Shown piece after piece: positions 14,516-61,869 of a DNA stretch of 64,000 bases. The first letter of the stretch is position 1. Every line of letters begins with the position of its first letter. The stretch is taken from contig NZ_OZ241836.1 in NCBI RefSeq assembly GCF_965202595.1, forward strand, positions 215,095 to 279,094. Direction: 5' to 3'. A program made the translations under genes and the position numbers. The DNA is from Candidatus Poriferisocius sp. GTDB taxonomy: Bacteria > Actinomycetota > Acidimicrobiia > Acidimicrobiales > Bin134. Under the pieces are notes generated by a model, which was not told the DNA's origin, made no database searches, and saw only the letters and a list, made by a program, of their open reading frames with translations.

Positions 14516-14648
14516 ATGACGCGGCCTGGTGGTGTTGATCTGTGGGGTTGTCGATGACGCGGCCTGGTGGTGTTGATGTGTGGGGTTGTCGATGACGCGG
14601 CCTGGTGGTGTTGATGTGTGGGGTTGTCGATGACGCGGCCTGGTGGTG
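14516..14648 (+). repeat. 38-bp tandem repeat (3 full units plus a partial one) encoding three ATGA-chained 13-codon mini-ORFs that lead into the next gene
   Basis: Mini-ORFs at 14516-14557, 14554-14595 and 14592-14633 (MTRPGGVD[L/V]WGCR*). Each stop overlaps the next ATG. The last ATG, at 14630, starts the downstream gene (MTRPGGDTGG...). Confidence 0.9.
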
Positions 14649-19459: not shown

Positions 19460-20434
19460 ATGCTGCGCGCCGCCACCCGAGGCAGCGCCTTGGCCCGCTG
19501 GCAAGCAGCCCACGTAGCCGATCTGCTGGGCGATGCCATCGACGTTCAACTGCTTGTTGTGACCACAACCGGCGACCGGCGAGCCGGCGAGCCCATATCG
19601 TCCATCGGCGGCAAGGGGGTGTTCGTCAAGGAGGTGCAGGCCGCGGTGCTGGACGGGCGGGCCGACCTGGCCGTCCACTCGGCCAAGGACCTGCCCGCCA
19701 CCACCCCCGATGGTCTGGTGGTGGCTGCGGTGCCCCCCCGGGCCGATCCTCGGGACGCGCTGGTGGGCAGCCGGTTGGACGACCTTCCCCCCAAAGGGTT
19801 GGTGGCCACCGGCTCGGCCCGCCGCCGGGTTCAGCTCCGCCGGCTCCGCCCCGATCTGCGGTTCGCCGAGTTGCGGGGCAACATTGACACCCGGCTGGCC
19901 AAGGTGCCCGACTACCACGCAGTGATCATGGCCAAAGCCGCCCTGGACCGGCTGGGCGAGCATCCGAGCGTTGTGGCGGCGCTGGGTCGGCGGGGCGAGC
20001 AACCGAGCGTTGTGGCCGCCCTGGAGCGGCTGGGCGAGCAACCGAACGTTGTGGATGTGTTGGGTCGGCGGCGCGAGCAGCCGGCCATCGTGGATGTGTT
20101 GGACTGCGAGGTTATGGTTCCTCAGGTGGGTCAAGGGGCCCTGGCGGTGGAGTGCCGGGAGGGCGATGATCGGGTCCGCTCCCTTCTGGCCGCCATCGAG
20201 GATCCAATGGCCCGGCGAGCGGTGGACGCCGAGCGGGCCTTTCTGTCCACCCTGGGCGGTGATTGCACCTTGCCCGCGGGAGCCCACGCCCGGATACTCG
20301 ACAACCGGGTGGTGATGCGGGCCGTGCTGGCCGGCGGTGTGGACGGCCGCTGCCACACCATGGTTGACGAGGGCAGCGACGGTGAATCCCTGGGCCAAGA
20401 CTTGGCCCGCCGGTTGCTTGCCGCGGCCCGATGA
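19460..20434 (+). CDS. hemC: Hydroxymethylbilane synthase (porphobilinogen deaminase) with a 39-bp x4 in-frame insertion
   Basis: LRAATRGSALARWQA, GKGVFVKE, RGNIDTRL and PQVGQGALAVECR motifs. ATG 19460 is preferred over the maximal ORF start at 19412. Confidence 0.9.
   Translation: MLRAATRGSALARWQAAHVADLLGDAIDVQLLVVTTTGDRRAGEPISSIGGKGVFVKEVQAAVLDGRADLAVHSAKDLPATTPDGLVVAAVPPRADPRDALVGSRLDDLPPKGLVATGSARRRVQLRRLRPDLRFAELRGNIDTRLAKVPDYHAVIMAKAALDRLGEHPSVVAALGRRGEQPSVVAALERLGEQPNVVDVLGRRREQPAIVDVLDCEVMVPQVGQGALAVECREGDDRVRSLLAAIEDPMARRAVDAERAFLSTLGGDCTLPAGAHARILDNRVVMRAVLAGGVDGRCHTMVDEGSDGESLGQDLARRLLAAAR
19955..20110 (+). repeat. In-frame 39-bp (13-aa) tandem repeat x4 inside hemC
   Basis: ggcgagca[t/a]ccgagcgttgtgg at 19955, 19994 and 20033, with a degenerate copy at 20072. 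Protein: GEHPSVVAALGRR GEQPSVVAALERL GEQPNVVDVLGRR REQPAIVDVLD. Confidence 0.9.
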
Positions 20435-20662
20435 CCGTTTATCCACGATGGCAGGGTTGATGGGCATGGCGTTGAACACTCGCCGGTTGCTTGCTGCGGC
20501 CCGATGACCGTTTATCCACGATGGCAGGGTTGATGGGCATGGCGTTGAACACTCGCCGGTTGCTTGCTGCGGCCCGATGACCGTTTATCCACGATGGCAG
20601 GGTTGATGGGCATGGCGTTGAACACCCGCCGGTTGCTTGCTGCGGCCCGATGACCGTTTACC
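20408..20662 (+). repeat. 73-bp tandem repeat (3 units plus a partial one) of the hemC-stop/cobA-start junction, encoding six chained mini-ORFs
   Basis: cgccggttgcttgc at 20408, 20481, 20554 and 20627. Mini-ORFs: 20431-20460, 20460-20507, 20504-20533, 20533-20580, 20577-20606, 20606-20653. They alternate between 9 aa (MTVYPRWQG) and 15 aa (MGMALNTRRLLAAAR), linked by ATGA and TGATG overlaps. Confidence 0.9.
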
Positions 20663-27784: not shown

Positions 27785-28621
27785 ATGCCACCACGCCGCT
27801 CCGGCCCCACCCCAAAGCCCATGGCCGAAGTTCCCGAACATCTCCTGAAGCGGGCCCAGCAGGCTCGCGAGCGCGCCGAGGCCCAGCAGGGCAGTGCCGG
27901 TTCCGACGCGCCCGGTTCCGACGCGCCCGGTTCTGCCGATGCCCCGTCCGGGGAATCCTCGGGTGGTCCCCGGATTCCCGATCACCTGCTGGACCGGTCC
28001 CGGTCGGCTCGCGAGCAGGCCGCCTCCGGGGGGTCCGGGGGGTTGGCCCCCGCACCGGCCACCGGTGCCGCCACCGCAGTGGCCGCCGCCCCGGCGGTGG
28101 CTCAGCCGGCGGCCACCGGACCGGGAGGCGGTACCCAGCGGTTGCTCACCGTGGTCAAGTCGGGCTCGATCCAAGATGTCAAGGCCATGCCCGCCGACAA
28201 GGTCCATGTCTGGCCCCACCTGCTGGTGGTGGAGTTCGTGGCTGCGCTGGTCTTCACCGCCTTCACCTTGATCTTCTCGATCTTCGTGAACGCCCCGCTG
28301 CTGGAGCTGGCCAACTTCAACGAGACCCCCAACCCGTCCAAGGCCCCCTGGTACTTCCTCGGCCTTCAGGAGCTGCTCACCATGTTCCACCCGATGGTGG
28401 CCGGGGTGACCATTCCCGGAATCGGGTTGTTCCTGCTGATTTTGGCCCCCTACATCGACCGCAATCCCAGCAAGCGACCCGAGGATCGCAAGTTCGCCAT
28501 CTCGATCATGACCATTCACCTGATGTTCTGGGCCACGCTGGTTCTCATCGGCTCGTTCTTCCGGGGCCCCGGCTTCAACTTCGTCTTCCCGTGGGAAGCC
28601 GGTCTCTTCTTCGATCTCTAG
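27785..28621 (+). CDS. Cytochrome b C-terminal domain / subunit-IV-like protein with a long low-complexity N-terminus
   Basis: PNPSKAPWYFLGLQELL corresponds to the PEWYFL motif of the cytochrome b C-terminal half/PetD. The N-terminus carries two [VI]P[ED]HLL.R motifs. Confidence 0.7.
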   Translation: MPPRRSGPTPKPMAEVPEHLLKRAQQARERAEAQQGSAGSDAPGSDAPGSADAPSGESSGGPRIPDHLLDRSRSAREQAASGGSGGLAPAPATGAATAVAAAPAVAQPAATGPGGGTQRLLTVVKSGSIQDVKAMPADKVHVWPHLLVVEFVAALVFTAFTLIFSIFVNAPLLELANFNETPNPSKAPWYFLGLQELLTMFHPMVAGVTIPGIGLFLLILAPYIDRNPSKRPEDRKFAISIMTIHLMFWATLVLIGSFFRGPGFNFVFPWEAGLFFDL

Positions 28622-35745: not shown

Positions 35746-37166
35746 TGGTGGTGGATGGGGGTGTGCGGATTGTTACGTCCCGCTTCGATGTGTCCGACGG
35801 GCACACAATGGCTGGCTATCAGCGTACTGGGGGGTATGAAGGGTTGCGGCGGGCGCTGGGGATGACCCCGGAGCAGGTCCACGACGAGGTTCGTGCCGCC
35901 AGCCTGCTGGGCCGGGGCGGGGCCGGGTTCCCCGCCGGGGTCAAGTGGGGGTTCTGCCCGCCCGGGGTCTGGCCCCGCTACCTGGTGGTGAACGGTGACG
36001 AGTCGGAACCCGGCACCTACAAGGATCGCCTCCTCATGGAGCGTGACCCCCACCAGCTCATCGAGGGTTGCCTGATCGCCTGCTACGCCCTCGGCCTCTC
36101 CCAGTGCTTCCTGTACGTGCGGGGCGAGATGGCCCATGCCCAGGAGCGGCTGGCCGCCGCTCTCAACGAGGCCTACGAGGCCGGGTACGTGGGCCGCAAC
36201 GTGCTCGGTGCCGGCGACTTCTCGGTGGACATCACCCTGCACTGGGGGGCCGGGGCCTACATCGTGGGGGAGGAGACCGCCCTGATCGAGAGCCTGGAGG
36301 GCAAGCGGGGTATGCCCCGATTGAAACCGCCCTACTTCCCGGCTTCCATAGGTCTCTACGGCAAACCCACCATCGTCAACAACGTGGAAACCCTGTCCAA
36401 CCTGCCGTGGATCTTGGCCAAAGGGGGAGCGGCCTTCGCCGCGATGGGGGCGGACGGCTCCACCGGTACCCGGGTGTTCGCAGTGTCGGGCCACGTGGTT
36501 TCCCCCGGCGTGTTCGAGGTTCCCTTCGGCACCACCACATTTCGCGACATCATCTTCGATCCCCGGTACGCCGGTGGCCTCCACCCCGGCCGTACCCTCA
36601 AGACGTTCATCCCCGGCGGGGCGTCGGCTCCCTGGTTCTTCGAGGAGCACCTTGACTTGCCCCTGGAGAAGACCACGGTGGACAAGGCCGGCTCGATGCT
36701 CGGCTCGGGAGCCATCGTGGTCATGGACGACACCACCGACGTGGTGAGGGCCTGCCACAACGTGGTGCGCTTCTTCGCCCGGGAATCCTGCGGCAAGTGC
36801 ACCCCGTGCCGGGAAGGCACCTCGTGGATGGAGAAGATCCTCAGCCGCATCCTGGACGGTCAGGGCCGACCCGATGACCTGGAACTACTGATCGACGTGG
36901 GCGACAACATCAGCCCGGGCGGGCACTGGCCCCCCCGCCAGACCACCATATGCCCGCTGGGCCCATCGGCGGTCTCACCAATCGCCTCCGCGCTGGGCCG
37001 GTTCCGCGACGAGTTCGAGGCCTACCTGCCCGCTGATGCTGTTGTGCCCGCTGACGCTGTTGTGCCGGCTGACGCTGTGATGCCCGCTGACGCTGTTGTG
37101 CCGGCTGATGCTGTGATGCCGGCCACTTCGGTGACCATAACTGCGAGTTCGGGAGCGGCACCGTGA
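35742..37166 (+). CDS. nuoF: NADH-quinone oxidoreductase subunit F with a repeat-expanded C-terminus
   Basis: GRGGAGFPAG, YLVVNGDESEPG and ESCGKCTPCREG motifs. Confidence 0.95.
   Translation: MMVVDGGVRIVTSRFDVSDGHTMAGYQRTGGYEGLRRALGMTPEQVHDEVRAASLLGRGGAGFPAGVKWGFCPPGVWPRYLVVNGDESEPGTYKDRLLMERDPHQLIEGCLIACYALGLSQCFLYVRGEMAHAQERLAAALNEAYEAGYVGRNVLGAGDFSVDITLHWGAGAYIVGEETALIESLEGKRGMPRLKPPYFPASIGLYGKPTIVNNVETLSNLPWILAKGGAAFAAMGADGSTGTRVFAVSGHVVSPGVFEVPFGTTTFRDIIFDPRYAGGLHPGRTLKTFIPGGASAPWFFEEHLDLPLEKTTVDKAGSMLGSGAIVVMDDTTDVVRACHNVVRFFARESCGKCTPCREGTSWMEKILSRILDGQGRPDDLELLIDVGDNISPGGHWPPRQTTICPLGPSAVSPIASALGRFRDEFEAYLPADAVVPADAVVPADAVMPADAVVPADAVMPATSVTITASSGAAP
37029..37118 (+). repeat. In-frame 18-bp tandem repeat x5 at the nuoF 3' end
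   Basis: cc[c/g]gctga[t/c]gctgt[t/g][g/a]tg at 37029, 37047, 37065, 37083 and 37101. Protein: PADAV[V/M] x5. Confidence 0.9.
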
Positions 37167-39790
37167 ACCGGCCGGAAACCGTGGTCAACATCACCGTCAA
37201 CAACCGGTCGGTGCAAGCCACCCCCGGAGAGTGGGTGATTGCCGCTGCCGAACGGGCCGGGGTGTACATCCCCCACTTTTGCTACCACCCCCGCATGAAC
37301 TCGGTGGGCATGTGCCGCATGTGCATCGTGGACATCGACACCGGGCGCGGCCCCGCCCTGCAACCCTCCTGCATGGTGCCGGTCAGCGAGGGAATGGTGG
37401 TGGACACCACCTCCGAGCAGACCCGCAAGGCTCAGGAGGGGGTGCTGGAGTTCCTGCTGTTGAACCACCCGCTGGACTGCCCGGTGTGCGACAAGGGCGG
37501 CGAGTGCCCCCTCCAGGACCAAACCATGTCCCACGGCCCCGGCGAGAGCCGCTTGGTGGAGGAGAAGCGCCATTTCGAGAAGCCCATCCCGGTGAACGAT
37601 CTGGTTTATCTGGACCGGGAGCGCTGCATCCTCTGCGATCGCTGCACCCGGTTTGCCGATGAGGTGGCTGGGGACCCGCTCATCACGTTCCAGGATCGGG
37701 GGGATCGGACTCAGGTCAACACCTTCCCCAATCTGCCCTTCTCCTCGTACTTCAGCGGCAACACCGTGCAGATCTGCCCGGTGGGGGCCCTCACCGCTCG
37801 ACCCTACCGGTTCAAGGCCCGCCCCTGGGACCTCACCGAGGTGGAGTCCACCTTCCCCAACCCCATGGGTGATCGGGTGGTGGTGCAGGCCTCTCGCGAC
37901 CAGGTGCTGCGCTACCAGGGAGTGGACAGCGACGCGGTCAACTGGGGGTGGCTCACCGACAAGGATCGGTTCGCATTCGAAGCTCTTGATCGGGGGCCAC
38001 GGCTGACGGTGCCGCTGGTTCGGGGCTCCTCGATGAGTGGCTCCGACCCCGGCGGCCAGGAGCTGGTGGAGTCCTCCTGGCATCAAGCCCTCAACCGGGC
38101 CGCGGAGGCCATCCGGGCTGCGGTGGCCGACCGGGGTCCGGGGTCGGTGGCGATACTGGGTGGGGCCCGCTCGACCAACGAGGACCAGTACGCCTGGGCT
38201 CGCCTGGCCAAGGGGGTTATCGGCACCGACCATGTTGACGCTCAGCTCGACGACGGCCTGCCCGCCGATGTCGTGCTCGGCCTGCCTCGGGCCACCATCA
38301 ATCGGGCCTGCACCCCCGGCGGCACCGTGATCTTGATGGCACCCGATCCCAAGGAGGAACAAGGCACCCTCTACCTGCGGCTCCGCCACGCCGTGACCAA
38401 CGACGGCGTGCAGCTCATCGAGCTGACCCCCCGAGCCACCGGTTTGAGCCATCTCGCCGCCCACCGGCTGCACCACCGCCCCGGTGAGGTTGCCGCGGTG
38501 GCGGCGGCCCTGGTGGGCGGCGATATCGATGTCGGACCCGCCGGTGAGATCGGCGGGGTTCCCGGTCCGGTGCTGGCCGCTGCGGCGGCCGGGCTGGTGG
38601 CCCGAGCCGATCAACCCATAACCGTGATCCTGGGTCGCCCTTCGCTGGCCGAGTCGGCCGCCCCTACGGTGGAGGCCGCCGCCGAACTGTCCAAGCTGGC
38701 CCGGCTGCTCGCCGCGGGCGGGCGACCCGGCATGAGTTTCCTGCCCGTACTGCACCGGGGCAACGTGTTCGGCGCGCTCGACATGGGTCTGGCTCCCGGT
38801 CTGCTGCCGGGCCGGGTGTCCCGGGCCGATGGTGGCTCGGCGGTGGCCGAGTTTTGGGGTTCGTTACCGGCGGACCCGGGCGCTGGGGCCGGCATCGCCA
38901 CCGGCGCTGCCACCGGCGCTGGGGCTGGTGCTGTCACCGGCGCTGCCACCGGCGCTGCCACCGGCGCTGGGGCCGGCGGGATCCTGGAAGCGGCCGCAGG
39001 GGGACGAATCGAGGTGCTGATCCTTTTGGGGGCCGATCCTTTGGGCGACGTTCCCAACGCCAAGCTGGCCGAGACCGCTCTGGCCGGGGTGGGCACCATC
39101 ATTGCCTCCGACTTGTTCCTGAACCCCTCCGCGGCCCGGGCCGACATCGTTTTCCCGGTCACGGCGTTCGGTGAGCATCGGGGTACCCACACCAACCTGG
39201 AGGGTCGGATCACCCGGCAGCGCCAGATTGTCACCCCTCCGGGTACGGCCCGGACCAACTGGTCCATCGCCACCGATCTGGCTCGGTTGCTGGGCACCGA
39301 TTTCGGGTTTGCCGACCCCGAGGCGGTGTGGTCCGAGATCACCCGGGTGGCCCCGTCGCACCGGGACCTGACCCTGGAGGCCGTGGAAGCCGAAACCGAT
39401 GGCGTGGTGGTTGCCGGTAGCTCCATCGTGTTCACCCCGCCCGGCGAACCGGTGCCGGTACCCCCGGCCGATGCCTACGGCCTGCGGTTGGTGTCGTCGC
39501 GCCGCATGTACGACCGGGGCACGCTGCTTCAGCACTCCCCCTCCCTGGCCGGTTTGGCTCCCACGGCGGTGCTGGCCGTGAACCCCTCCGACTTTCAGGG
39601 TGTCGGGGTGGATCCCGGTACCGAGGTTCAGGTCGTCTCCCCGGTCGGTGAGATGACCGTGCCGCTGGTGGTCGACCCCGGTGTGCCCCGAGGGACCGCA
39701 GCTTTTGGCTACAACCACCCCGACCGCGATGTACGAGAACTCATCGACCCGGCCGCGGTGGTTACCGATGTGAGGATTCAGACCCGATGA
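37163..39790 (+). CDS. nuoG: NADH-quinone oxidoreductase subunit G
   Basis: N-terminal 2Fe-2S/4Fe-4S Cys clusters (CYHPRMNSVGMCRMC, HPLDCPVCDKGGECPLQD, CILCDRC) and a molybdopterin-like domain. A GA/T-rich low-complexity insertion lies around 38870-38990. Confidence 0.95.
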   Translation: MNRPETVVNITVNNRSVQATPGEWVIAAAERAGVYIPHFCYHPRMNSVGMCRMCIVDIDTGRGPALQPSCMVPVSEGMVVDTTSEQTRKAQEGVLEFLLLNHPLDCPVCDKGGECPLQDQTMSHGPGESRLVEEKRHFEKPIPVNDLVYLDRERCILCDRCTRFADEVAGDPLITFQDRGDRTQVNTFPNLPFSSYFSGNTVQICPVGALTARPYRFKARPWDLTEVESTFPNPMGDRVVVQASRDQVLRYQGVDSDAVNWGWLTDKDRFAFEALDRGPRLTVPLVRGSSMSGSDPGGQELVESSWHQALNRAAEAIRAAVADRGPGSVAILGGARSTNEDQYAWARLAKGVIGTDHVDAQLDDGLPADVVLGLPRATINRACTPGGTVILMAPDPKEEQGTLYLRLRHAVTNDGVQLIELTPRATGLSHLAAHRLHHRPGEVAAVAAALVGGDIDVGPAGEIGGVPGPVLAAAAAGLVARADQPITVILGRPSLAESAAPTVEAAAELSKLARLLAAGGRPGMSFLPVLHRGNVFGALDMGLAPGLLPGRVSRADGGSAVAEFWGSLPADPGAGAGIATGAATGAGAGAVTGAATGAATGAGAGGILEAAAGGRIEVLILLGADPLGDVPNAKLAETALAGVGTIIASDLFLNPSAARADIVFPVTAFGEHRGTHTNLEGRITRQRQIVTPPGTARTNWSIATDLARLLGTDFGFADPEAVWSEITRVAPSHRDLTLEAVEAETDGVVVAGSSIVFTPPGEPVPVPPADAYGLRLVSSRRMYDRGTLLQHSPSLAGLAPTAVLAVNPSDFQGVGVDPGTEVQVVSPVGEMTVPLVVDPGVPRGTAAFGYNHPDRDVRELIDPAAVVTDVRIQTR

Positions 39791-39840
39791 CGGCTGACCC
39801 GGCTGCGGTGGTTACCGATGTGAGGATCCGGACCCGATGA
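39746..39840 (+). repeat. 50-bp duplication of the nuoG/nuoH junction with a 17-codon bridging mini-ORF
   Basis: gacccggc.gcggtggttaccgatgtgaggat.c.gacccgatga at 39746 and 39796. Mini-ORF 39787-39840 (MTADPAAVVTDVRIRTR*). ATGA overlaps at both ends. Confidence 0.9.
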
Positions 39841-41063
39841 ACGTCGCCCCGGCGCTTTTGGGTCCGACCGTGTTCGGCCTCGACCCGCTCTACATCGGGG
39901 GGGTGGGCCTGGCCGAGGTTCTCATCACCCTGCTCAAGGTGGGGGTGGCTTTTGCTCTTCTGCTGATGGCGGTCATGCTGATGATCTGGTTCGAACGCAA
40001 GTTGATCGGCGACATGCAGAACCGTATCGGGCCTGCGCTGGCCGGGCCGTTCGGCATCTTCCAGACCCTGGCCGACGGGATCAAGCTGTTCTTCAAGGAG
40101 GACCTGATCCCCGACCGCTCCGACCGGTTGGTGTTCAAGCTGGCCCCCTACCTGTCGCTGGTGCCTGCCTTTTTGGTGTTCGCCGTGATCCCCGTGGGCG
40201 GCGATTTCAGCGGTGGCAACGGGCGGGTCAGCCTGTTCGGTCACGAGACCTTCCTCCAGGTGTCCGACCCGCCGGTGGGCATCCTGCTGGTGCTGGCCAT
40301 GTCGTCGGTGGCCGTTTACGGGGTGATGCTGGCCGGGTGGTCGTCGGGCTCCAAGTATCCCCTGCTGGCGTCGGTGCGGGCCTCGGCCCAGATGGTTTCC
40401 TACGAGGCCGCACTGGGTTTGTCGCTGGCCGCGGTGCTGCTGAAATCGGGCAGCCTGTCCACCCACCTGATCGTTTCCGAGCAGTCGGTGTGGAACTGGA
40501 ACCTGTGGGTTACATGGGTGGTGCCCATGGTCGTCTTCTTGATCGCTGCCACCGCCGAACTGAACCGGCCCCCCTTCGACCTGGTGGAGGCCGAGCAGGA
40601 GCTGGTCGGCGGCTTCCACACCGAGTACAGCTCCATCCGGTTCGCCCTGTTCTACCTGGCCGAGTTCATGAACACCATCACGATGTCGGCCATCGTGGTG
40701 ACCCTGTTCCTGGGCGGGCCCAACGGTCCCGACTTCACCTCGGTGGGCTGGCTGTCGGGGTTGCTGTGGTTCTTGGGCAAGCTGCTGATCCTGCTGTTCA
40801 CCTTTGTGTGGTTGCGGGCCACCCTGCCCCGCTTCCGCTACGACCAGCTCATGGACCTGGGTTGGAAATTGCTCATCCCCCTGTCGCTGGGGTGGCTGCT
40901 GGTGCTGGCCTCCTACGACGTGGCCGGGGATCGGGGCTGGAACCGCTTCGCCACCGTGCTGGCGGTGATGGCGGTGATGGCCGCTCTGGCCGGGTTGTTG
41001 AGCCTGGCCCTGCGAAATGCCCGCCGCCACCGGGAGTTGGATCCCCAAGGTGGTTTTGCCTGA
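39837..41063 (+). CDS. nuoH: NADH-quinone oxidoreductase subunit H
   Basis: WFERKLIGDMQNRIGP and EAEQELVGGFHTEYS motifs. Confidence 0.95.
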   Translation: MNVAPALLGPTVFGLDPLYIGGVGLAEVLITLLKVGVAFALLLMAVMLMIWFERKLIGDMQNRIGPALAGPFGIFQTLADGIKLFFKEDLIPDRSDRLVFKLAPYLSLVPAFLVFAVIPVGGDFSGGNGRVSLFGHETFLQVSDPPVGILLVLAMSSVAVYGVMLAGWSSGSKYPLLASVRASAQMVSYEAALGLSLAAVLLKSGSLSTHLIVSEQSVWNWNLWVTWVVPMVVFLIAATAELNRPPFDLVEAEQELVGGFHTEYSSIRFALFYLAEFMNTITMSAIVVTLFLGGPNGPDFTSVGWLSGLLWFLGKLLILLFTFVWLRATLPRFRYDQLMDLGWKLLIPLSLGWLLVLASYDVAGDRGWNRFATVLAVMAVMAALAGLLSLALRNARRHRELDPQGGFA

Positions 41064-41130
41064 TGGGATACCTTGAGTTCACCCGATGGTGGCTGGATCC
41101 CCAAGGTGGTTTTGCCTGATGGGATACCTT
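41039..41130 (+). repeat. 56-bp duplication of the nuoH/nuoI junction with an 18-codon bridging mini-ORF
   Basis: ggatccccaaggtggttttgcctgatgggatacctt at 41039 and 41095. Mini-ORF 41063-41119 (MGYLEFTRWWLDPQGGFA*). TGATG overlaps at both ends. Confidence 0.9.
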
Positions 41131-41775
41131 CAGGGCTTTGCCGTCACCCTTCGCAAGTTGTTCAAGGGCACCGAGACCGGTCGGGTGGTCACCAGCCAGT
41201 ACCCCGACGAGAAGCGTCCCAAACCCGAGCGCTTCCACGGCCGCCACGTGCTGAACCGCTACGAGGACGGCATGGAGAAGTGCATCGGGTGCGAGCTGTG
41301 CGCCGGGGTCTGCCCGGCCCGGTGCATTTATGTTCGGGGGGCCGACAACCAGCCCGATGATCCGGTTTCGCCCGGCGAGCGATACGGCTATGTCTACGAG
41401 ATCAACTACCTGCGGTGCATCCACTGCGACCTGTGCGTGGAGGCCTGCCCCACCGAGGCCATAACCGAGTCGAAACTGTTCGAGTTCTCGTTCACCGACC
41501 GGGCCGATGCCATCTACACCAAGGACGAGCTGGTGGTGGATGACGATGGCCGCCCCCAGCAGCTTCCCTGGGAACACTGGAATCCCGGTGACGATCAGCA
41601 CACCTCGGCCTGGGTCCGGGCCACATCCCCCTCGGGGCGGGCCGACTACGAGGGTCGGGTGGCCTGGTCGGGCGAGCTGGGCTACGGCATCCGCGCCCCC
41701 GAGCGGGGTCAGTCGGCCGGCGACGAGTCCCCCGCCGATTATGACCAGGAAGATCTTGGCGGGGGTCACCACTGA
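41119..41775 (+). CDS. nuoI: NADH-quinone oxidoreductase subunit I
   Basis: CIGCELCAGVCP and CIHCDLCVEACP motifs. The start is at the second junction copy (MGYLQGFAVTLRK). Confidence 0.95.
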   Translation: MGYLQGFAVTLRKLFKGTETGRVVTSQYPDEKRPKPERFHGRHVLNRYEDGMEKCIGCELCAGVCPARCIYVRGADNQPDDPVSPGERYGYVYEINYLRCIHCDLCVEACPTEAITESKLFEFSFTDRADAIYTKDELVVDDDGRPQQLPWEHWNPGDDQHTSAWVRATSPSGRADYEGRVAWSGELGYGIRAPERGQSAGDESPADYDQEDLGGGHH

Positions 41776-54692: not shown

Positions 54693-55322
54693 ATGTCGCT
54701 TCTTGTTTCGGCCCGCGCCCACTTGGTGGACTACAGGCACCGCCTGCTGCGTTACGGCGGGGCATCGGCGGTGGGGGTGGTGTTGGGGCAGACCATCCTG
54801 CGAGTGTGCTACGACCTGCTGGGATGGTCGGCGTTGGTGGCCAACCTGGTGGCGTTCCTTATAGCCAACATCCCCGTGTACCACCTGAACCGGTCATGGG
54901 TGTGGGACCGATCGGGTCCCAGTAGCTGGAGGCGCGAGGTGCTGCCCTTCTGGCTGGTTTCCTTCGCGGGGCTGGCCCTGTCGTCGCTTGCCGTGGGTTT
55001 GATCGACCGGGTGACCGGCAACGGCTGGTTGATCACCGTGGCATCGGTGGGGGCGTTCGGCACGGTATGGCTGGTGAAGTACGCGGTGTGCGACCAGTAC
55101 CTGTTCGGCCCCCCAGGCCAAAGCGGCGACCATGACGGTCCCAATCGGGAGATGGCAGGGGATCACAACGATCCCAATCGGGAGATGGCTGGGGATCACG
55201 ACAGCTCCAATCGGGGAATGGCTGGGGATCACGACAGCTCCAACCGGGGGATGGCAGGGGATCACAACAGCTCCAATCGGGGAATGGCAGGCGATGGAGC
55301 CCGACCGGCGGGCGTTCGCTGA
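54693..55322 (+). CDS. GtrA-family membrane protein with a repeat-expanded C-terminal tail
   Basis: GASAVGVVLGQ, FLIANIPVYHLNRSWVW and VKYAVCDQYLF fit the GtrA pattern. The tail is GDH[DN]..NR[EG]MA x5. Confidence 0.75.
   Translation: MSLLVSARAHLVDYRHRLLRYGGASAVGVVLGQTILRVCYDLLGWSALVANLVAFLIANIPVYHLNRSWVWDRSGPSSWRREVLPFWLVSFAGLALSSLAVGLIDRVTGNGWLITVASVGAFGTVWLVKYAVCDQYLFGPPGQSGDHDGPNREMAGDHNDPNREMAGDHDSSNRGMAGDHDSSNRGMAGDHNSSNRGMAGDGARPAGVR
55125..55295 (+). repeat. In-frame 33-bp tandem repeat x5 at the GtrA 3' end, abutting the next gene's start
   Basis: Units encode GDHDGPNREMA, GDHNDPNREMA, GDHDSSNRGMA, GDHDSSNRGMA and GDHNSSNRGMA. Confidence 0.9.
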
Positions 55323-60483: not shown

Positions 60484-60647
60484 CTGCTGTCCAGCAGTAC
60501 CCGGTAGTGCTCCGCTGGGGAGGAGGGCCGTATTCTCACCGTCACGCGTGCCATTCGTTGAGCAGTACCCGGTAGTGCTCCGCTGGGGATGCGGTTTGGG
60601 TTCTCACCGTCACGCGTGCCATTCGTTGAGCAGTACCCGGTAGTGCT
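60477..60647 (-). repeat. 68-bp tandem repeat (2 units plus a partial one) of the GT4-stop / methyltransferase-start junction, with two chained mini-ORFs
   Basis: The tca (stop) recurs at 60610 and 60542. Minus-strand mini-ORFs: 60613-60542 (VTVRTQTASPAEHYRVLLNEWHA*) and 60545-60477 (VTVRIRPSSPAEHYRVLLDSRC*). They are GTGA-chained, and the last overlaps the methyltransferase GTG by 7 nt. Confidence 0.85.
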
Positions 60648-61869
60648 CAACGGTCTTTTCCGCAGTGTGGTGCCAACTCCAGCGGCTCCTCACCCGTTCC
60701 CGCCCGGCTTGGCCTATCCGAGCGGCCATGGCCGGATTGTCCAGAATCCGAACGAGCGCCCCGGCCAATGCCTCGCTGTCTGCGGGGGGCACCAGCAGGC
60801 AGGTCTCGCCGCTGGTGCCGGCCACCTCGGGCAGCGCCCCGCCGGTGGTGGCCACCAGCGGTGTGGCGCTGGACATGGTTTCGATGGCCGGCAGCGAGAA
60901 CCCCTCGTACAGCGAGGGCACCACTGCCACTGAGCTGGTGGCGTACAGCTCCACAATGCGGTCATCGGGCACCCCCGACACGAACTCCACCACCTCGCCC
61001 AGTCCCAGGCTGTTGATGGTGGAGGAGGATGCACCCCCCTCGCGGGGTTTTCCGATCACGATCAGCCGCACATCCCGCTCGGTGCGCAACTTGGCCACCG
61101 CCTCCAGCAGGTAGCGCAGGCCCTTCATGGGCACATCCGCGCTGGCGGTGGTGATGATCTGCCCCGGCCGGCGGTCCACGCCGGGAAGCGGGCGGAACAG
61201 CTCGGTATCCACCCCCACCGGTACCACATGCATCCGGCCATGGGGTACCCGCTGGTCCCGGGCTATGTCGTCGAGGGACGACTCCGACACGGTGATGATG
61301 CGCCGCAAGCGGCGGGCCACCCGGGCCTGCATCCGGATGAAGGAGTACCAGCGTCGCTTGCCGAAACGATCCATCATCCCCCGGGCGTGCTCGAGCTCCA
61401 GTTGGCGGTCCACGGTGATGGGATGGTGGATGGTGGCCAGTACCGGTAGCCCGTCCCGCTCCATGCCCAAAAGCCCGTAGCCCAATGACTGGTTGTCGTG
61501 CACGATATCGAATTCCCCGGCTCGGGAGCGCAGTGCCTGCCAGGCCCGGAGCGAGAAGGCCAGCGGTTCGGAGAAGGCTCCGGTCATGAACGAGCCCACC
61601 TCGGCGGCATCGGCCCACGATTTGATCTCCCAGAATCCGGGTAACCGGCCCGGGTAGGCATCGTTGAAGATATCCAGGCTGGGAAGCCGGTGAAGCGGTA
61701 CCCGAGGGTCCAGAACCGGGTAGGGCTGCCCGCTCAGCACCTCCACGTGGTGCCCCAGATCGGTCAGCGCCCGACTCAGGTGATGGACGTACACGCCCTG
61801 GCCCCCGCAATGGGGTTTGCCCCGGTACGAAAGCAGGGCAATCCTGAGGGATCGATCCTCCGGGGCCAT
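60610..61869 (-). CDS. GT4-family glycosyltransferase
   Basis: IALLSYRGKPHCGGQGVYVHHLSRAL, and PSLYEGFSLPAIETMSSATPLV (EX7E region). Confidence 0.85.
   Translation of the reverse strand: MAPEDRSLRIALLSYRGKPHCGGQGVYVHHLSRALTDLGHHVEVLSGQPYPVLDPRVPLHRLPSLDIFNDAYPGRLPGFWEIKSWADAAEVGSFMTGAFSEPLAFSLRAWQALRSRAGEFDIVHDNQSLGYGLLGMERDGLPVLATIHHPITVDRQLELEHARGMMDRFGKRRWYSFIRMQARVARRLRRIITVSESSLDDIARDQRVPHGRMHVVPVGVDTELFRPLPGVDRRPGQIITTASADVPMKGLRYLLEAVAKLRTERDVRLIVIGKPREGGASSSTINSLGLGEVVEFVSGVPDDRIVELYATSSVAVVPSLYEGFSLPAIETMSSATPLVATTGGALPEVAGTSGETCLLVPPADSEALAGALVRILDNPAMAARIGQAGRERVRSRWSWHHTAEKTVEHYRVLLNEWHA

Follow-up and report, generated by a model that had tools for sequence, protein, structure and literature searches.

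A duplicated nuoH/nuoI junction with a bridging mini-ORF in a 'Candidatus Poriferisocius' genome: a probable insertion scar kept by reading phase

Translational coupling by termination-reinitiation is described for co-oriented genes of heteromeric complexes whose stop and start codons overlap, the overlaps being of -1 or -4 nt (PMC10666635, PMC12548453). The MIRU elements (mycobacterial interspersed repetitive units) are short inserts at gene starts and junctions in operons. The small ORF within each overlaps the start of the next gene with its stop, which couples the translation of the two, so that the inserts do little harm to expression (PMC12548453). The third system of relevance is the off-target integration of CRISPR spacers with duplication of a target of repeat length. 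The passages that treat it describe such integration as known in E. coli over-producing Cas1-Cas2, the 'neo-CRISPR' events there as rare, and the evidence from natural genomes as only circumstantial (PMC7054753, PMC6698737, bioRxiv 10.1101/148544, citing Nivala, Shipman and Church 2018, Nat Microbiol 3:310).

The element considered here lies at the junction of nuoH and nuoI in a genome of 3.1 Mb (two contigs, 63% GC; G000 below) and resembles each of these systems in part. It belongs to a stretch of 64,000 nucleotides that was analysed as a whole and is called the window. NCBIfam models identify NuoG, NuoH, NuoI and NuoJ around the junction. A search of the literature found no account of junction duplications in Acidimicrobiia or 'Poriferisocius'.

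The segment from 41038 to 41130 is comprised of TGGATCCCCAAGGTGGTTTTGCCTGATGGGATACCTT (37 nt), GAGTTCACCCGATGGTGGC and a second copy of TGGATCCCCAAGGTGGTTTTGCCTGATGGGATACCTT (Table 1). The two arms are identical at 37 of 37 positions by our own extension, or 40 nt long with one mismatch (98%) in the repeat search, and their starts are 56 nt apart. Each arm contains the last eight codons of nuoH (LDPQGGFA), the SD-like AAGGTGG, the TGATG in which the stop and the start overlap, and the first four codons of nuoI (MGYL). An exact repeat of 37 nt makes a chance origin impossible. The C-terminal tail of nuoH is kept in relatives, which carry AAGGAGG at the position of the SD-like sequence.

Table 1. 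Features of the nuoH/nuoI junction (positions are those of the window).
Feature	Position (strand)	Description	Basis
nuoH CDS	39837..41063 (+)	408 aa, end RHRELDPQGGFA, stop TGA 41061-41063	ORF list; NCBIfam NuoH E=6.5e-135
Direct-repeat arm 1	41038..41074 (+)	original nuoH tail, TGATG, decoy copy of nuoI codons 1-4	sequence, repeat search
SD-like AAGGTGG	41047..41053 (+)	9 nt 5' of decoy ATG	sequence; function putative
Decoy ATG	41063-41065 (+)	overlaps nuoH TGA	
Bridging mini-ORF	41063..41119 (+)	18 codons + stop: MGYLEFTRWWLDPQGGFA*	translation
Filler	41075..41093 (+)	19 nt, GAGTTCACCCGATGGTGGC	unrelated to either flank, no source identified
Direct-repeat arm 2	41094..41130 (+)	nuoH tail copy (= mini-ORF end), SD-like site 41103-41109, real nuoI start	
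nuoI CDS	41119..41775 (+)	218 aa, start MGYLQGFAVTLRK as in relatives	

An earlier note on this DNA, made from the letters and a list of open reading frames, had described a mini-ORF of 18 codons that bridges the two genes, and translation bears this out. Its likeness to NuoI at the start and to NuoH at the end had also been seen correctly; both segments fall within the copied arm. The same is true of the TGATG claimed for both ends of the mini-ORF, which is present at 41061-41065 and at 41117-41121. The start of the mini-ORF overlaps the TGA of nuoH, and its own stop (TGA 41117-41119) overlaps the real ATG of nuoI (41119-41121). Both ends have this arrangement because the junction was copied with a spacing of 2 mod 3. 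The '56-bp unit' of the note stands as a spacing and falls as a unit: no more than 37 of the 56 nt occur twice, and the other 19 are a non-local filler. The feature is a copy-filler-copy insertion of about 1.66 periods, without a plain 56-bp tandem unit, and it is absent from the TRF tandem calls even at a minimum score of 30.

This architecture bears on the question of slippage. A slipped-strand tandem duplication of a 56-bp unit, since diverged, requires two complete head-to-tail copies, and only the 1.66 periods are found. The intervening 19 nt agree with the sequence before the first copy at just 7 of 19 positions and the sequence after the second copy at just 4 of 19, so that they fit neither register, and point mutation cannot erase 19 nt yet spare 74. 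Filler-less tandems do occur at the neighbouring junctions G/H (50 nt, two copies) and K/L (38 nt, three copies), and a related genome, OZ242338, has a clean 62-bp tandem at the nuoH/nuoI junction itself. For the locus in this genome, slippage is nevertheless a very improbable origin. The identity of the arms around an unrelated filler argues for insertion.

The insertion also makes an in-frame ATG upstream of the real one. As a result, the longest ORF of nuoI (window 41086-41775, ATG 41086, 229 aa, MVAGSPRWFCL-MGYL...) has a false start. Gene prediction that favours the longest ORF will annotate nuoI wrongly, and the same probably holds for many other genes of this genome.

Taken together, the locus is probably a real and recent insertion scar of 56 nt at the nuoH/nuoI overlap, which has been kept by a filter on reading phase. 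In the proposed course of events, a junction stretch of 36-37 nt would have been duplicated around a piece of non-local DNA of 19-20 nt. Neither protein is altered, because NuoH ends at its own stop in the first copy and NuoI starts at its own ATG in the second. The first copy would supply a complete decoy start of nuoI, SD and ATG included. Since the length is 2 mod 3, translation from the decoy would run for 18 codons and stop at the copied TGA that overlaps the real ATG. Ribosomes leaving nuoH, or loading at the decoy, could then be handed to nuoI with no out-of-frame run over its start. Judged from the sequence, the mini-ORF probably passes ribosomes on to nuoI in this way. About 1,000 loci, this one included, would be products of a process that is specific to the lineage and still active, and selection would leave only harmless positions and phases.

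The same junction was compared in related genomes by measuring its length between two conserved anchors. By its NuoH relatives, this sponge-symbiont genome belongs among sponge-associated Acidimicrobiia near 'Candidatus Poriferisocius' and the Sva0996 group. Four of the genomes (G010, G015, OZ246892 and Sva0996 bin134) have a single-copy junction of 48 nt with TGATG or TAATG, which is the ancestral form. The junction of this genome measures 104 nt (+56). That of G008 measures 113 nt (+65); its arms of about 28 nt have already diverged, its borders differ, and its 37-nt filler is unrelated. The tandem of OZ242338 (110 nt, +62) extends 45 nt into nuoI, and in IRC1_bin_38 (105 nt, +57) the arms are nearly decayed. 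Because the borders and fillers differ among these four genomes, the insertions represent four independent events. In all four of them the stop of nuoH is followed by the overlapping start of an ORF of 18-22 codons, the stop of which overlaps or abuts the ATG of nuoI. The middles of the four bridging peptides are unrelated, and the only common parts are those copied from NuoI and NuoH.

The junction is not alone in this genome. TRF finds 786 repeats of period at least 20, 100 kb in total, and a gene end lies inside 356 of the 786, against 108 +/- 9 under random placement. A scan for local direct-repeat pairs gives 1,039 loci; 663 are simple, namely 452 of the copy-filler-copy type and 211 full tandems. 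The earlier note had taken the other nuo junctions to be of the same design, and all six from G/H to L/M do carry a duplication. Their spacings are 50, 56, 44, 71, 38 and 71 nt, each of them 2 mod 3, and spacer-sized inserts are found at J/K (37 nt) and L/M (32 nt).

The reading phase of the duplications depends on where they lie. Genes were called with a crude home-made program, which makes the following category counts approximate, with contrasts big enough to survive this: of 131 duplications within genes, 129 keep the reading frame; the 180 unique duplicated junctions with overlapping stop and start have lengths of 2 mod 3 in 108 cases, 0 in 50 and 1 in 22; and where no start codon is involved, lengths of 1 and 2 mod 3 are about equally frequent (25 vs 22 where both flanks are non-coding, 5 vs 11 between convergent genes). 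Among the 2-mod-3 junction duplications, 105 of 108 end exactly on the next start. From these phase contrasts, which are sequence statistics, we infer that decoy starts are used and that insertions which drive ribosomes out of frame over a real start are removed.

Two further explanations can be weighed against these data. The mini-ORF might be adaptive, either as a functional peptide of 18 residues or as a device selected to tune the ratio of NuoH to NuoI translation; the presence of a bridging ORF at nuoH/nuoI in four genomes and the strong enrichment of the relay phase across the genome would agree with this. However, the four peptides are alike only in what was copied from the two flanking genes, four other members of the genus have no insert at all, and hundreds of unrelated junctions show the same architecture, a pattern more in keeping with a filter on harm than with a gained function. 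An adaptive role is accordingly improbable, and the peptide is most likely a by-product of an ORF that is tolerated and phase-filtered, without design. The other explanation, an artefact of assembly or polishing, is more improbable than any other reading considered. Exact look-up found neither an identical NuoI (in its 218-aa or its 229-aa form) nor an identical NuoH in other assemblies, as might be expected of an artefact. The filler, however, is unique sequence and not a product of repeat mis-assembly, and in relatives that were assembled separately the junction holds other insertions, some of them decayed in part. The in-frame interior duplications and the phase bias at junctions are, moreover, marks of selection and not of software.

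The spacing of the copy-filler-copy loci is multimodal, with modes at 66 and at 71-73 nt, a minor mode at 61-62 and a sharp drop after 75. The loci spaced 71-73 have arms that peak at 36-37 nt, and the full tandems peak at 33 and 36. G008, whose CRISPR array has a unit of 72 nt, has its top spacing mode at 66. When the 307 fillers were compared all against all, no family was found except two paralogous gene pairs, and comparison of the fillers with CRISPR spacers gave no meaningful matches. At least three fillers elsewhere match distant chromosomal DNA (28/28, 25/25 and 33/34 nt). Five filler sources in the chromosome have no common flanking motif or PAM, and the base profiles at the arm borders (n=54, orientation unknown) show a weak enrichment of C/G and no usable motif. 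The sharp spacing modes, together with the heterogeneity of the fillers, suggest that the inserting process has a length of its own.

The filler at nuoH/nuoI has no second copy in the genome at up to 2 mismatches. Its best genomic match is an exact run of 14 nt near window position 28388, which is at chance level. Eight exact matches were found among metagenome contigs, where about 7 are expected by chance; three of the eight lie in one small secreted-protein gene, and none of the eight has nuo flanks. IMG/VR gave one exact match, in a contig of 66% GC, with about 0.4 expected. The cores of three neighbouring fillers had no match among the viral contigs.

Further repeats are seen in the window. 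The C-terminus of nuoF (37027-37120) contains an in-frame repeat of 18 nt x 4.9, and Gly/Ala-rich in-frame repeats of 12, 24 and 36 nt are found inside nuoG (38879-38978); they suggest that the duplication process also lengthens proteins where this is tolerated. Multi-copy arrays lie at 14516-14648 (38 nt x 3.5), 20408-20660 (73 nt x 3.5), 55141-55295 (33 nt x 4.7) and 60493-60648 (68 nt x 2.3), as expected of single insertions that were later amplified head-to-tail.

The genome encodes a type I-G CRISPR-Cas locus with Cas2, a Cas4-Cas1 fusion (E=2.6e-89), Cas3, GSU0053 and GSU0054. The adjoining array consists of 75 repeats of 36 nt in units of 72-73 nt, with spacers of 35-39 nt. The arm at nuoH/nuoI, 37 nt long (36 plus one base that may agree by chance), corresponds to the length of this repeat, and genome-wide the arms of 36-37 nt and the spacing of 71-72 nt match the resident repeat and the array unit. 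The frequency of the duplications was estimated with the same repeat-pair scan in samples of 160-560 kb from each of ten other genomes. There are 72 loci per 200 kb in G000, 94-96 in G008 and 13 in G039, and 1-12 in G001, G007, G010, G013, G015, G018, G024 and G041. The exact 36-nt repeat occurs in large arrays in just two of 40 genus genomes, G000 (75 copies) and G008 (113-114); G039 has four copies of a variant repeat. The two duplication-rich genomes are thus the only two with such arrays. Their nuo DNA is 85-93% identical, and no two of the compared genomes are closer; the association with Cas therefore comes down, in effect, to a single lineage.

Off-target integration by the resident type I-G Cas4/Cas1-Cas2 is a possible origin of the nuoH/nuoI insertion, with a probability that we put slightly short of even. 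The filler of 19-20 nt is the main difficulty. The array spacers measure 35-39 nt; unless its filler was shortened later, the locus thus departs from spacer integration in one defining trait. The leader-proximal three spacers of the G008 array (L185 595-800; C1:2764996-2765200) are 10, 12 and 23 nt long, which places short inserts within the output range of this system; further in, the same array has an interruption of about 1.3 kb. A Cas origin is the leading, though unproven, candidate, and it is likelier for the class spaced 71-73 nt than for nuoH/nuoI. Its extension to the whole of both genomes is more tentative still. The type I-G adaptation complex of G000 and G008 might integrate fragments throughout the chromosome and leave hundreds of units composed of a 36-nt duplication and an insert, of which selection would keep those at gene boundaries in the hand-over phase. 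The ratio of ectopic loci to array spacers, about 6 : 1, counts against a Cas origin.

The scar and the filter could be as described and the maker unrelated to CRISPR, for example an integrase or nicking enzyme whose breaks are staggered by about 33-36 nt, or faulty replication or repair in which short DNA fragments are captured. The short filler at nuoH/nuoI, which is not spacer-sized, would suit such a maker, and so would the discrete 66-nt class and the filler-less tandems (classes of 33 and 36 nt within a range of 33-39 bp), which have no counterpart in the arrays, and the lack of a PAM shared by the filler sources. In addition, G010, G013 and G015 have Cas4-Cas1 fusions, yet almost no duplication loci, which rules out the presence of Cas1 as the sole predictor of the trait. 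On the other hand, Ku was not found in these genomes, and capture by Ku-dependent end joining is therefore unlikely as the maker; the arm length and the spacing, which match the resident repeat and array unit, and the restriction of the large arrays to the two duplication-rich genomes also speak against it. A maker of this kind is considered rather unlikely. To our knowledge, no other machinery inserts heterogeneous DNA of about 35 nt while duplicating a target of about 36 nt.

Several observations were made beside these. One spacer of the array (C1:2234444-2239847) matches the genome's own gyrB at 37 of 37 positions (C1:2849915-2849951), in the Toprim motif NSAGGSAKDARDP; the triplet 5' of this protospacer is not TTN. 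The ectopic filler at C1:2209084 copies DNA only 5 kb from the gyrB protospacer. The origin cluster of G000 (C1:2,842,500-2,853,000), with a yidC-like gene, the genome's only dnaA, dnaN, recF, gyrB and gyrA, has 36-46% GC against 63% for the genome, and looks as though core replication genes had been replaced by ones of foreign composition.

The nuoH/nuoI locus is of use in several respects. It corrects an annotation trap, in which the longest ORF begins nuoI at 41086, and it shows that an insertion is tolerated by an essential and tightly coupled respiratory operon. The genome-wide pattern amounts to a natural experiment on translational coupling, with hundreds of independent insertions sorted by phase, to which the four independent insertions at one junction are added. 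New here are the recurrence of such insertions in four genomes, the phase statistics for the whole genome and a concrete connection with a resident type I-G array. This may be the first natural genome with a large, countable record of off-target CRISPR spacer integration. If the Cas origin were true, the cost and sloppiness of adaptation would become measurable in the wild, the nuoH/nuoI mini-ORF would be a fossil of 'friendly fire' by an immune system, and CRISPR adaptation would count as a major mutagen in nature, one by which the junctions of operons are remodelled.

Compared with the known systems, the locus is like the neo-CRISPR events in that a short DNA lies between two direct copies of a repeat-length target in a genome that has the adaptation genes. 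It differs in scale, with hundreds of loci in a wild genome instead of the rare events under over-production that those sources describe for E. coli, and in its insert of 19 nt instead of 35-39 nt; many of its sister loci have no insert at all. The element may be a neo-CRISPR-like scar, although its insert falls short of spacer length. The likeness to termination-reinitiation lies in the type of overlap and in the co-oriented genes of one heteromeric complex, and the mini-ORF keeps the TGATG overlap at both ends. Here, however, the putative relay would run through an accidental intermediate ORF, whereas the known coupling is direct from gene to gene. With MIRU the locus shares a small ORF of the insert that overlaps the upstream stop and the downstream start. 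MIRU share a consensus, are dispersed as one family and are considered mobile, whereas each locus in this genome duplicates its own local sequence; the arms are local, the fillers form no family, and the overlap is taken over from the junction itself (TGATG, -1 nt, not -4). The copy number of MIRU varies between strains; for this locus the comparison was between species, and it shows presence or absence of an insert and independent events. While it belongs to no repeat family, the element would work like a MIRU-type coupled mini-ORF.
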